Of a stretch of DNA of 64,000 bases, positions 15,001-16,742 are shown piece after piece. This DNA comes from Candidatus Woesearchaeota archaeon (GTDB lineage Archaea > Nanobdellota > Nanobdellia > Woesearchaeales > JAZDKJ01): NCBI GenBank assembly GCA_043803105.1, contig JAZDKJ010000006.1:288001-352000 (forward strand), read 5' to 3'. Within the stretch, counting starts at the first letter, position 1; each line of letters opens with the position of its first letter. The position numbers are program-made.

Positions 15001-16742
15001 TTCTGGTGTGGTTGAAATCAAACTCTTTCAAGGATATTTCAATGGTTCTTCCGAGTTTGCAGGCAGCTCAGCACGAGATATTGACTTTGTATCGGCAGCA
15101 TGGGGCAAGCAGGATTTTAGAAAAGGTCGCAGATTGTGATAAAACCTTGGCCGCGATTCTTCATGGCTCGCCACAATTCCCTTCGTGACCACAATCACTG
15201 CACGAATTCTTCTCTTTGTACCAAATCTTTTTAAGCTTTGCAGGATTTTTTATCTCCCATGTCAAGGACTCTTCTCTACATTGAGGATGATGAATCTCTG
15301 GTTAGGATGTGGAGGTCTGTCCTGCAGGCTTATGGCCATGGAACAGAGGAGCCAAAAGAGCCGCTTGACGACTCTAATCTGAACCAGACAATTGATATGG
15401 TCATTGTCCATGACCTTAAGAATGCTGCTGGTTGGTACAGTGGTCCTGTAATCCCTGAATCAGATTTTCAGAAGGCAAAACAACTTGTGAGGCAGGAGGA
15501 ACTTAAGCCCTATGCCTTAAGCATTCTTGTCATCTACACCTTCAGGCACTTTTTTCAATACACCAATCCGATTTGTGTCTTGGTTGATGATTTATCCTTT
15601 GCCCCAAAGGCTCTTGTGCCAGCATATCAAAGTCTTGGCGCAAATTTTGTGCTGGAAAAGCCTTTGTCTGTCATGGACTTTGTGAGGGATACCCTGCCGT
15701 TTCTCTATGATAAGCCCCTGGCTTCATCGTAGAAATTCTTATAAACAATTTGCATTTCTTCTCTCTCAAGGGCACGTAGCTCAGTAGCAGAGCGTTCCCC
15801 TCGCACGGGAAAGGCCGCGAGTGCGACTCTCGCCGTGTCCAGTCACTTTGAATCGGTTGGACGAGTTCGTTTTCCCAGGTTCGCCCGAGCTTAAGCGAGC
15901 GGCGTGCCAGAAAACTGATGGTTTTCTGAGCATTTGCATATTGCAAAAAGCTGCGCGAGTGCGACTCTCGCCGTGTCCAGTTCTGCTAAAAGCGTGGTCG
16001 TTTTTCCCAGGTTTTTGCGTATCGCAAAAAGCTGTTCCGGCTCTCGCCGTGTCCACTCTTTGACAATTAAAAAAAAAGAAAAAGCTCGCACAATCAGGCT
16101 GGGTTCGCGTCCGGTTGTATTGAAAATATTCAAATATATAAAACTTGCCTCGGATTTTCCGGAAAATCAGCTATATTTTGTCAGTCAACAATAAGAACCA
16201 AGTGATACCGAATATAGACGCGAAGCCGGGCTCGCATAATCAGGTATTGCGTCTGCCTGAAGAGCAGATGGATTCGCGTCCATCAGGGTTCAAATTCTCA
16301 TCATGAGAATCCCTGGCCCGGCGCAAATCAACAAGATTTTCTGCCAGGGTCCGGCCTTTACTCAGGTGTATGTCTAGCTTCCTGTTGTTAGAATTCTATT
16401 GTCTGCAGCCAGAGCAGAGTGCAGCCTCTTTGCTGCTTTGCGACATTATCTTTGTGTCTGGCCCTTTCCTCAGCAATGATTCTGTCAACCTTTGAAGCGG
16501 GTCAAACTGCTGATGAACACTGTCTGGCAGAATGTTGGGGCTTGGTAATTGACTGTAATTATCATACATCCTTAAAAGTCCTGGAAGGCCACCATACAGT
16601 GGAATGCCCATTGCATAATCCTTTTTTTCTGGAGGAAGAAACGGAATACTCAGTGCATAATCCTGCTCCTGCTTTCGTTCCGGTACATTATATCCTACTT
16701 CCATAATACTAAGAATTCCTTTATTCTTTAAATTCCTTTCTA

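Follow-up and report, generated by a model that had tools for sequence, protein, structure and literature searches.

The locus described here poses the question of what a tRNA gene may do whose body is that of a serine tRNA and whose anticodon is that of phenylalanine. Natural tRNAs with an identity contradicting their anticodon are rare, and they are central to how the genetic code changes or gets blurred. The gene lies in a 64,000-nt stretch of a Woesearchaeota genome (the window, along which positions without a contig name are counted). An initial annotation had described it as an intact Ser-type class II cloverleaf with the anticodon GAA, and the exact sequence was found at 16225-16323 on the plus strand, with closing helices. 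We call it copy A; its assignment as a class II, G73 tRNA gene is based on the sequence, the fold of the spliced form and a partial Rfam tRNA match.

The acceptor stem of copy A, GCCGGGC/GCCCGGC, consists of seven Watson-Crick pairs out of seven and is followed by TC, the D arm GCAT-AATCAGGTA-TTGC, in which a 3-bp stem was assigned by reading the sequence, and G26. The anticodon stem TCTGC/GCAGA closes the loop CTGAAGA, with GAA at 16259-16261 (+). A variable arm of 15 nt, the T stem CAGGG/CCCTG, a T loop TTCAAAT that is split by 15 nt before its last T, and the discriminator G73 complete the gene. With the intron removed by script, the 84-nt product was computed to fold with the acceptor, anticodon, variable and T helices closed (MFE -39.7 kcal/mol). 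Cloverleaf, G18 G19, U33, the long variable arm and a TTCRANY loop are those of a class II tRNA, and the long variable arm and G73 are those of an archaeal tRNA-Ser body. Copy A shares the D arm TCGCATAAYNNGGTATTGCG and the acceptor start GCCG with the tRNA-Ser(CGA) of this genome and with normal tRNA-Ser genes of the order, which bears out the serine features claimed earlier.

The anticodon is where copy A departs from tRNA-Ser, which has NGA or GCU. Compared with archaeal tRNA-Phe, only the anticodon and the loop fit (the loop, G37 included, is identical to that of the class I tRNA-Phe of this genome), while G73, U20 and the long arm do not. The branch layout is 7/5, not the 8/4 or 9/3 of the allo-tRNAs, and the acceptor stem is not extendable, since the added pair would be A(-1)-G73, a non-pair. 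Archaeal tRNA-Sec has a 9/4 branch, a long D stem and the anticodon UCA; copy A has the 7/5 branch, a D stem of 3 bp and GAA.

The 15-nt intron (16295-16309, +) interrupts the T loop at position 59/60, between exon 1 (16225-16294) and exon 2 (16310-16323), and its borders can be moved by 1 nt with the spliced product unchanged. Position 59/60 is the commonest tRNA intron position in this genome and is used by many native tRNAs. In a helix drawn by hand, T54-A57 (TTCA) pairs with TGAG of the intron over 4 bp (U.G, U-A, C-G, A-U), between two 3-nt bulges (AAU and AAU) and adjoining the T stem. The intron could thus form a bulge-helix-bulge, the cleavage of which would restore TTCAAAT; we infer this structure, since in fold prediction the MFE of the precursor favours a 7-bp intron hairpin over it. 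Standard detectors overlook copy A because of its intron: in this region ARAGORN called only a tRNA-Ala and a spurious tmRNA, and Rfam at the gathering score only the tRNA-Ala. A permissive Rfam scan gave a partial match at 16225-16285 (19.2 bits compared to a cut-off of 29). Most tRNAs of this genome escape the standard tRNA finders, and tRNA genes of this sort therefore stay unannotated.

The genes with which copy A had been compared exist, namely a normal tRNA-Ser(CGA) (C8:113874-114015) and a class I tRNA-Phe(GAA) with A73 (C12:181423-181652), and all four normal tRNA-Ser genes are present beside copy A. There is one SerRS candidate (C10:86708-87247) and one PheRS alpha/beta (region C4:6100-9010) in the genome, gene names that we presumed from ORF length. 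UUY makes up 4.6 % of the codons of the genome, and in GyrB 15 of 20 aligned Phe residues are also Phe in E. coli GyrB, none being Ser. This usage and the Phe at conserved positions rule out a reassignment of UUY, and they also mean that efficient decoding by copy A would be very costly. The identity rules assumed in the initial annotation are in print: according to the available text of PMC9976931, archaeal tRNA-Ser identity lies in the long variable arm and G73, with the anticodon no identity element, and in H. volcanii G73 makes tRNA-Ser unacceptable to LeuRS, as an antideterminant. The same text gives G34, A35, A36 and A73, plus G20 in A. pernix, for Phe identity, A73 being strictly conserved in tRNA-Phe and G34/A35/A36 being conserved identity elements.

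Three full GAA class II paralogs (A, B and D) and at least three broken copies were found in this genome. Copy B (11357-11510, +) is a second full class II, G73 tRNA(GAA) with the loop CTGAAAA in the stem CTCTG/CAGAG; it has two introns, in the T stem and the T loop, and differs from copy A in D arm and variable arm, while its last 19 nt are the last 19 nt of copy A. The 5' two-thirds of the two copies are unalignable, yet all helices of both are intact, and the 5' part of copy B had no convincing homolog among 100 genomes of the order. Copy D (C6:403463-403310) is full but has two acceptor mismatches. The anticodon stems of the three paralogs are unrelated in sequence but compensated (TCTGC/GCAGA, CTCTG/CAGAG and GTTGC/GCAAT). 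A dedicated synthetase or elongation-factor paralog was considered and rejected, the GTPase beside copy D being IF-2 and the synthetase TyrRS.

Among the broken copies are copy C (C8:41342-41442), fragment E (near C6:403610) and a decayed tandem copy of copy A at 16084-16153 (+), which has kept D-arm, variable-arm, T-loop and 3'-end blocks and from which the anticodon arm is deleted. Its D arm is identical to that of copy A at 14 of 15 positions, and the variable arm, TTCAAAT and the 3' end also align; the local alignment score of 34 was equalled in one of 500 shuffles, so that the degenerate upstream copy reported before is real. An 18-nt exact copy of the anticodon arm of copy A inside hisS (21473-21490, minus strand) was rejected as a coding coincidence, because it encodes F-L-P-E-E-Q(-I), like the N-terminal motif of HisRS (E. 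coli DYLPGE), and similar coding matches occur in other genomes.

A tRNA-Ala(CGC) with a canonical promoter box lies 384 nt upstream of copy A on the same strand (15770-15841, +). Its 3' end recurs as a 28-nt exact copy at 15954-15981 (+; blastn-short) and as a 15-nt copy at 16041-16055, which both look, from their sequence, like attachment-site remnants; oligo-T runs lie between tRNA-Ala and copy A. A AAACTTTATAAA-type box near -37, present in most canonical tRNAs, is absent from copies A, B and D. Their promoter PWM scores are 1.2, 3.2 and 3.4, respectively, compared to a canonical median of 5.9, and are reached by 61, 33 and 31 % of random 60-mers. An AT-rich box that precedes copy A by about 90 nt belongs to the decayed copy. 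Strong TATA-like boxes were read in the sequences upstream of family members in other genomes.

Plain DNA similarity searches in 60 relatives gave only normal tRNA-Ser genes and coding look-alikes (best foreign E = 5e-5, to a tRNA-Ser(CGA)). The earlier statement that copy A has no DNA match elsewhere thus stands for plain similarity but fails for motif searches, which find relatives. The IUPAC patterns used detect only genes that have this D arm and in which no intron falls between positions 8 and 37, and all prevalence figures are therefore lower bounds. A pattern with CTGAA fixed matched seven of 401 genomes of the order, this one included, and its reversed control none; five of the six foreign matches fold as class II, G73, GAA tRNAs and one is false. 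As GAA was fixed by the pattern, its invariance in the foreign members is not independent evidence. Among 185,579 species genomes the scan gave 14 loci: seven of Woesearchaeota/Nanoarchaeota type and three Nitrosopumilus-like, all ten of which fold, and four bacterial matches that are not tRNAs. GAA relatives of copy A are found both in further families of the order and in Nitrosopumilus.

Position 35 was scanned as A, as U, and as G with non-A36. Allowing A or U gave 28 matches, spread over 18 of the 401 genomes of this Woesearchaeota-like DPANN order, and 27 of the matches were A35; the single U35 match was a false positive. The A35 anticodons found on Ser-type G73 class II bodies are GAA, GAU, GAG, GAC, CAA, UAA, UAG and CAG, and since they carry A35 they read U-central codons (Phe, Leu, Ile, Val). 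With G35 and non-A36 only two matches were obtained, both ordinary class I tRNA-Ala, whereas the generic Ser-type pattern matched in 272 of the 401 genomes. A perfect 7-bp acceptor stem with G73 was present in 13 of the 20 sequences listed from the A/U35 scan (by script). When 12 members are aligned, 97.9 % of the cells pair compared to 72.3 % in shuffles; double changes occur at all five anticodon-stem pairs, and the covariation score was reached by none of 500 shuffles. A canonical class I tRNA-Phe is found beside the GAA gene in this genome and in three of five others tested (G046, G168 and G206), and one orthologous locus has different anticodons, GAA in G168 and GAC in G233. No copy of the gene turned up in the single same-genus genome, G001, which is 84 % complete and fragmented and in which the locus is not assembled: its gyrB contig begins inside gyrB, and on its tRNA-Ala contig the roughly 390 nt downstream are free of Ser-like tRNAs.

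In a complete Nitrosopumilus chromosome, one GAA gene is located inside an integrated mobile element, with genes for an IS66 transposase, a tyrosine integrase, ParB-MT-A70, Fic/DOC, TFIIB and an MCM helicase, together with a methylase and a type III restriction enzyme. The Ser-type D-arm pattern was absent from all 60 other Nitrosopumilus genomes, the native Ser tRNAs of the genus not matching it. Copy A belongs to a family of Ser-type A35 tRNAs that occurs sporadically, is prone to duplication and is sometimes mobile. The best explanation for copy A itself is a serine-type tRNA gene in working order, the anticodon of which has shifted to GAA, and three other readings have to be weighed against it.

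Copy A might be a non-functional duplicate, the youngest survivor of a duplicating and decaying family derived from tRNA-Ser, silent or barely transcribed and without effect on translation. Such decay would account for the lack of a canonical promoter at the canonical distance from A, B and D, for the broken copies beside full ones (16084-16153, copy C, fragment E) and for the mismatched acceptor of copy D. It also fits a cbf5 locus at which the tRNA is present in only two of 11 genomes of one family, and no change is easier to make from GGA, CGA or UGA than G to A at position 35. However, the helices of copies A and B have all stayed intact despite their unalignable 5' two-thirds, the anticodon stem covaries across the 12 members, and strong TATA-like boxes precede the members in other genomes. 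Free drift at position 36 would moreover predict NGB anticodons, of which there was no true case compared to nine NAB cases, and we consider a silent duplicate a rather doubtful explanation. The original fallback, a recent one-step mutant of GGA that is becoming a pseudogene, is likewise weakened by three compensated GAA paralogs and by the relatives elsewhere.

The attachment-site-like tRNA-Ala remnants adjoining copy A, the arrays of partial copies around the gene in genome L041 and the Nitrosopumilus tRNA inside an integrated element, in a genus whose native Ser tRNAs lack the D-arm pattern, suggest a functional RNA outside bulk translation that is tied to mobile elements, as cargo, as an attachment site, or as a toxic or decoy tRNA in host-element conflict. 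The last has been proposed for some allo-tRNAs, which occur near toxin-antitoxin and transposon genes (available text of PMC5389517). Against such a role, the copies in this genome are found among housekeeping genes (gyrB and hisS near copy A, IF-2 and tyrS around copy D), the 10 ORFs around A and B gave no integrase by Pfam and no PHROG match, and the five matches of the IMG/VR scan were phage Tyr, Lys or Asn tRNAs or non-tRNA, none of the G73 A35 type. As a non-translational function also leaves the A35-only anticodons unexplained, this reading appears unlikely. Finally, PheRS might charge copy A via GAA, which would make it a second, harmless tRNA-Phe that decodes UUY correctly. The loop shared with the canonical tRNA-Phe, G37 included, and G34, A35 and A36, conserved Phe identity elements in the available text of PMC9976931, are in line with this. 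G73 in place of the strictly conserved A73, U20 in place of the A. pernix G20 and the long variable arm are not, and the same body, invariably with G73, also bears Leu, Ile and Val anticodons. This points to the serine-type body and not Phe identity as what is kept, and makes a second tRNA-Phe very improbable.

We consider the chances about even that copy A is, as its sequence suggests, a splice-competent, SerRS-chargeable, low-level Phe-to-Ser missense tRNA. The gene would be transcribed, probably weakly; the archaeal splicing endonuclease would remove the T-loop intron at the bulge-helix-bulge, and CCA would then be added. The single SerRS of the genome, reading the long variable arm and G73 and not the anticodon, would charge the tRNA with serine. 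Pairing with UUC and UUU in competition with the canonical tRNA-Phe would then lead to low-level or conditional Phe-to-Ser substitution. More tentatively, DPANN archaea of the Woesearchaeota-like type and at least one Nitrosopumilus mobile element may share an undescribed family of natural missense tRNAs, restricted to A35 and reading U-central hydrophobic codons as serine, the genes of which duplicate, decay, switch anticodon and move. It would be either a device for conditional proteome-wide mistranslation or a weapon between mobile element and host. Its genes form a defined set that is open to testing; they are A35-restricted, occur beside cognate tRNAs and are sometimes borne by mobile elements. 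These traits bear on whether small-genome archaea tolerate or use ambiguous decoding, on the origin of anticodon shifts, and on the use of mis-decoding tRNAs by mobile elements.

Several known systems resemble copy A. The bacterial allo-tRNAs likewise combine a long variable arm and serine identity with foreign anticodons, and like the family of copy A they have a sporadic distribution, have in part become pseudogenes and lie close to mobile or toxin-antitoxin genes (Mukai et al., NAR 2017, available text of PMC5389517). According to the same text, their anticodons include Leu and rarely Phe or Val, and in E. coli those that combine Ser identity with a Leu anticodon put Ser at Leu codons. As described there, allo-tRNAs are bacterial and have the 8/4 or 9/3 layout, whereas copy A is archaeal, 7/5, has a T-loop intron and belongs to an A35-restricted family. 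No dedicated synthetase paralog was seen in the genome of copy A, unlike in some systems of mistranslating tRNAs derived from tRNA-Pro, which are reportedly paired with one. These bacterial tRNAs, as far as the available text of PMC10404621 goes, are also a natural family with a mismatch between anticodon and identity, with a proline body unlike that of copy A.

The nev-tRNAs of nematodes are class II tRNAs with anticodons for class I amino acids and are multi-copy (Hamashima et al. 2012, PMC3333845; PMC4033280, both as available). They are weakly expressed and are charged by the body rather than the anticodon, and the review table in the available text lists none for Archaea (PMC4033280). Unlike copy A they are eukaryotic, with a leucine-type body and Gly(CCC) or Ile(UAU) anticodons. 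The human tRNA-Ser-AGA-2-3 G35A is a serine tRNA with the same change at position 35 and puts Ser at Phe codons (available text of PMC12993449). As far as described, it segregates as an allele of a single gene in a single species, whereas copy A belongs to a multi-copy family that is conserved across lineages. In the CTG-clade yeasts, tRNA-Ser(CAG) is said to act alone or to compete with the cognate tRNA, and the CUG codon to be rare or reassigned, whereas here UUY, with 4.6 % of codons, is clearly Phe. The likeness lies in a serine tRNA acting on a Leu codon, the stochastic decoding of Ascoidea included (available text of PMC6041473). No report of a conflict between tRNA identity and anticodon in Archaea was found in the open-access main texts of PMC and bioRxiv, reviews included; the known conflicts found were either bacterial (allo-tRNAs, tRNA-Pro variants) or eukaryotic (nev-tRNAs, CUG yeasts, human variants). 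As a missense tRNA, copy A would be a counterpart in archaea of the allo-tRNAs, the nev-tRNAs and the human tRNA-Ser G35A variant.

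The gene at window positions 16225-16323 (+), here copy A, agrees base for base with the initial annotation, and its sequence and spliced fold confirm a real Ser-type tRNA gene with a Phe anticodon. The acceptor stem GCCGGGC/GCCCGGC has 7/7 Watson-Crick pairs, the D arm is GCAT-AATCAGGTA-TTGC (D stem by manual reading of the sequence), and the anticodon stem TCTGC/GCAGA closes the loop CTGAAGA, with GAA at 16259-16261 (+). These are followed by a 15-nt variable arm, a T stem CAGGG/CCCTG and the discriminator G. Copy A also carries G37, an unusual feature that it shares with the real tRNA-Phe. 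A 15-nt intron (16295-16309) is located between T-loop positions 59 and 60, and in the fold of the 84-nt RNA left after its removal by script (MFE -39.7 kcal/mol) the acceptor, anticodon, variable and T helices are all closed. The precursor was drawn by hand as a bulge-helix-bulge adjoining the T stem, in which T54-A57 are paired with intron TGAG and an AAU bulge lies on either side; cleavage after the second bulge base would regenerate TTCAAAT. We infer this motif tentatively, since the MFE fold of the precursor favours an intron hairpin. ARAGORN missed copy A, reporting the neighbouring tRNA-Ala(CGC) (15770-15841) and a spurious 'tmRNA*' (15887-16330) over tRNA-Ala remnants and copy A, an artefact of tRNA-like ends. 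At the Rfam gathering score copy A was likewise missed and the tRNA-Ala was the sole match, while a permissive Rfam scan gave a partial tRNA match of 19.2 bits vs the cut-off of 29.

The host assembly (1.56 Mb, 13 contigs, G+C ~43 %, completeness 96.5 %; the window is C6:288001-352000, C denoting contigs) belongs to an order, Woesearchaeales, whose genomes number in the hundreds and are small (0.6-2.7 Mb). The tRNA genes of the host are rich in introns, as many as three per gene (e.g. C12:181423-181652, C8:132658-132913 and C7:30536-30757). ARAGORN with introns allowed found 9 of these tRNA genes, Rfam 6 above the cut-off, and a custom stem-based scan ~30, the latter from 35 filtered candidate rows of which some were duplicate or false; automatic tRNA annotation of this lineage will be very incomplete. 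In most of the tRNAs from the stem-based scan, an intron interrupts the T loop at 59/60, as in copy A. All normal Ser and Phe decoders are present: Ser(GGA) at C7:30536-30757, Ser(UGA) at C8:105988-106204, Ser(CGA) at C8:113874-114015, Ser(GCU) at C10:28584-28731 and a class I Phe(GAA) with A73, G20 and three introns at C12:181423-181652. The Ser(CGA) and Phe(GAA) genes cited earlier for comparison were thus both located. One candidate SerRS and one putative alpha/beta pair of PheRS were found, named with the help of ORF length.

Several observations concern the tRNA introns and gene ends. The orthologous tRNA-Ala(CGC) of another genome of the genus (locus L075, G001:C179:400-554, minus) has a long T-loop intron and the window's copy has none, so members of one genus can differ in intron presence. 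Several tRNA genes have their own 3' end (T-stem and acceptor 3' strands) repeated 60-220 nt further on (C6:449473-449643, C10:3423-3643, C12:77068-77259 and, repeating the tRNA-Ala end between that gene and copy A, window 15954-15981 and 16041-16055); the repeats may be what is left of attachment sites of integrative elements, or else alternative 3' exons. A repeat, GCAAAAAGCTG / CAGCTTTTTT...GGGAAAA, adjoins or sits within T-loop introns of different tRNA genes (window 15901-16060; C6:521424-521476, C6:403731-403765, C12:123941-123975, C8:7981-8033 and C7:30612-30645), which suggests from sequence that the introns are related and possibly mobile.

Searching the genome by blastn-short and a stem-loop scan revealed two further full GAA paralogs. 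Copy B (window 11357-11510) has the loop CTGAAAA, the stem CTCTG/CAGAG and two introns; its D arm and variable arm are unlike those of copy A, and its final 19 nt are identical. All helices are intact in both copies despite 5' two-thirds that cannot be aligned. Copy D (C6:403463-403310, minus strand), with loop CTGAAAA, stem GTTGC/GCAAT and two introns, has two acceptor-stem mismatches. Broken copies were also found: in C (C8:41342-41442) the T-arm intron and 3' end adjoin the 5' half, and E (near C6:403610) is a 5' fragment. The degenerate partial copy that had been noted upstream of copy A was recovered as a decayed tandem copy at window 16084-16153 (alignment score equalled by 1/500 shuffles). 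The tRNA family therefore duplicates and decays in this genome. An 18-nt exact copy of the anticodon stem-loop of copy A within hisS (window 21473-21490, -) was rejected as a coding coincidence; it encodes F-L-P-E-E-Q(-I), which we take to resemble a conserved HisRS N-terminal motif.

Relatives were found in other genomes. A search pattern that joins the Ser-type D arm to CTGAA through ten free bases matched 7 of the 401 genomes of the order, this one included, and the reversed pattern, used as control, matched none of the 401. Of the six foreign matches, one is false and the other five are class II, G73, GAA tRNAs that have T-loop introns. A similar scan turned up 14 loci in 185,579 species genomes: seven of Woesearchaeota/Nanoarchaeota type (four already seen in the order, and one record labelled Methanosarcinales), three Nitrosopumilus-like, and four bacterial matches that were rejected as not being tRNAs. 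The contig labelled 'uncultured Methanosarcinales archaeon' (L028) has the same gene and flank as the Woesearchaeota-like G398, and a Nitrosopumilus-type copy with MT-A70 lies on a 10-kb contig (L041) of a 4.5-Mb bin named 'Leptonemataceae bacterium'; both labels are probably binning or labelling errors. In a 12-member alignment 97.9 % of cells were paired vs 72.3 % in shuffles, and compensatory double changes occurred at 5/5 anticodon-stem pairs, with a covariation score reached by 0/500 shuffles; CTGAA is invariant there because the search pattern fixed it, so that this is no independent evidence. A canonical class I tRNA-Phe was found alongside in three of five carrier genomes tested, and that of the other two may be hidden by introns or gaps.

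With any anticodon allowed, the Ser-type pattern matched 272 of the 401 genomes, UGA, CGA, GGA and GCU prevailing among 150 listed of ~510 matches. With A or U at position 35 there were 28 matches in 18 of the 401 genomes; the single U35 match, an intron-containing Ser(GCU) gene, is a false positive, and the other 27 are all A35. G35 with non-A36 gave two matches in the 401 genomes, both of them intron-containing tRNA-Ala genes of ordinary class I type. Within the reach of the pattern, and among the anticodons covered (A35, U35 and G35, and of the C35 ones GCU), the shift is thus to A35 alone. The anticodons are GAA (this genome three times, G003, G046, G053, G168, G206, G398), GAU (G053, G084, G292), GAG (G053), GAC (G233, and G409 from another search), UAA (G079), UAG (G017, G178), CAA (G086 twice, G178 three times, G241 twice, G194) and CAG (G148, G206). 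The 401-genome tallies include five genomes flagged as unpublished, G273, G335, G374, G303 and G370, and the A35 genes described all come from other genomes. Among 20 A/U35 sequences checked by script, 13 have a perfect acceptor stem and G73; the other seven comprise two cut at a contig end, one resolved by eye (G233), one with 6/7 acceptor pairs, two without clear structure and the false positive. A35 anticodons correspond to the U-central codons of Phe, Leu, Ile and Val, and position 36 varies solely on the A35 background. Such tRNAs may be tolerated as poor decoders, with weak A-U-rich codon pairing without proper position-37 modification, or they may be aimed at U-central codons.

The relatives turn over in anticodon and place. 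In family f61, a class II tRNA lies between cbf5 and the next gene in 2 of 11 genomes, with anticodon GAA in G168 and GAC in G233 and with similar promoters and variable arms; in the other nine a D arm of this type was absent within 1.5 kb of the locus. Both carriers have, ~55 nt upstream, a degenerate 5'-half copy with the anticodon loop of its full copy, resembling the decayed copy upstream of A. Several copies in genus g86 have acceptor stem, T arm and intron in common and differ in anticodon and variable arm; three of them, Ser-type G73 tRNAs with Leu anticodons (UAG, CAA, CAA), lie ~880 nt apart (loci L102, G178:C38:1602-3470, and L061, G241:C92).

The body of copy A is, by sequence, that of a serine tRNA. 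According to PMC9976931, it is the variable arm that confers serine identity, independently of the anticodon; in H. volcanii, G73 keeps LeuRS from charging the tRNA, and Phe identity needs A73, plus G20 in A. pernix. The serine-type body and these identity rules make a Ser-charged tRNA that would read UUY the likeliest mechanism for copy A. Charging by PheRS is an unlikely alternative; copy A has neither A73 nor G20. Together UUU and UUC account for 4.6 % of the codons of 549 long ORFs (297,958 codons), and the 20 Phe in the aligned parts of the GyrB encoded beside copy A stand opposite Phe 15, Tyr 4, Asn 1 and Ser 0 times in E. coli GyrB; UUY is therefore Phe in this organism. As Phe usage is normal, the effect of copy A must be small or conditional.

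A silent, decaying duplicate would be in keeping with the broken copies and with the promoters. Canonical host tRNAs have an upstream box (consensus AAACTTTATAAA, starting near -37) with a median leave-one-out score of 5.9, reached by 8.8 % of random 60-mers; the scores of copies A, B and D are 1.2, 3.2 and 3.4, equalled by 61, 33 and 31 %. These low scores are not proof of silence, because about nine canonical tRNAs are also below 3.5. T runs occur between tRNA-Ala and copy A, and by our own reading of upstream sequence TATA-like boxes are clear in members from other genomes. The initial annotation had allowed for a recently mutated paralog becoming a pseudogene; duplication and decay do occur here, but a lone mutant is at odds with copies B and D and the relatives elsewhere. 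Copy A belongs to a tRNA family and is more interesting than first described. A further, less likely possibility is a role linked to mobile elements and not to bulk translation. On a complete Nitrosopumilus chromosome the GAA gene, labelled by ARAGORN as an 83-nt tRNA-Phe(gaa), sits within an integrated element (IS66 transposase, tyrosine integrase, ParB-MT-A70, Fic/DOC, TFIIB, MCM helicase, methylase and type III restriction enzyme); it is foreign there, as 0/60 other genomes of the genus match the generic Ser-type pattern. In the third Nitrosopumilus-like record (L041) an array of partial copies surrounds the gene. The host-genome copies are located among housekeeping genes, A after tRNA-Ala and before gyrB and hisS, D between IF-2 and tyrS. 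Pfam detected no integrase near copies A and B, ten ORFs around them had no PHROG match, and an IMG/VR scan gave no member of the Ser-type A35 family. The gyrB gene (window 16740-19124, -) contains an intein (Intein_splicing domain, residues 435-591) between the GHKL/transducer and Toprim parts.

Open-access PMC and bioRxiv main texts yielded no archaeal report of such tRNAs, and tRNA-Ser, sense codons and DPANN all go unmentioned in a 2022 review of the unconventional codes of archaea. A 2014 review of tRNA gene diversity (PMC4033280) lists nev-type tRNAs for nematodes alone. Copy A is outside the structurally defined allo-tRNA and tRNA-Sec classes because of its 7/5 acceptor/T layout. In its inferred function it would work in the manner of bacterial allo-tRNAs, nematode nev-tRNAs, the human tRNA-Ser G35A allele and the tRNA-Ser(CAG) of yeasts.
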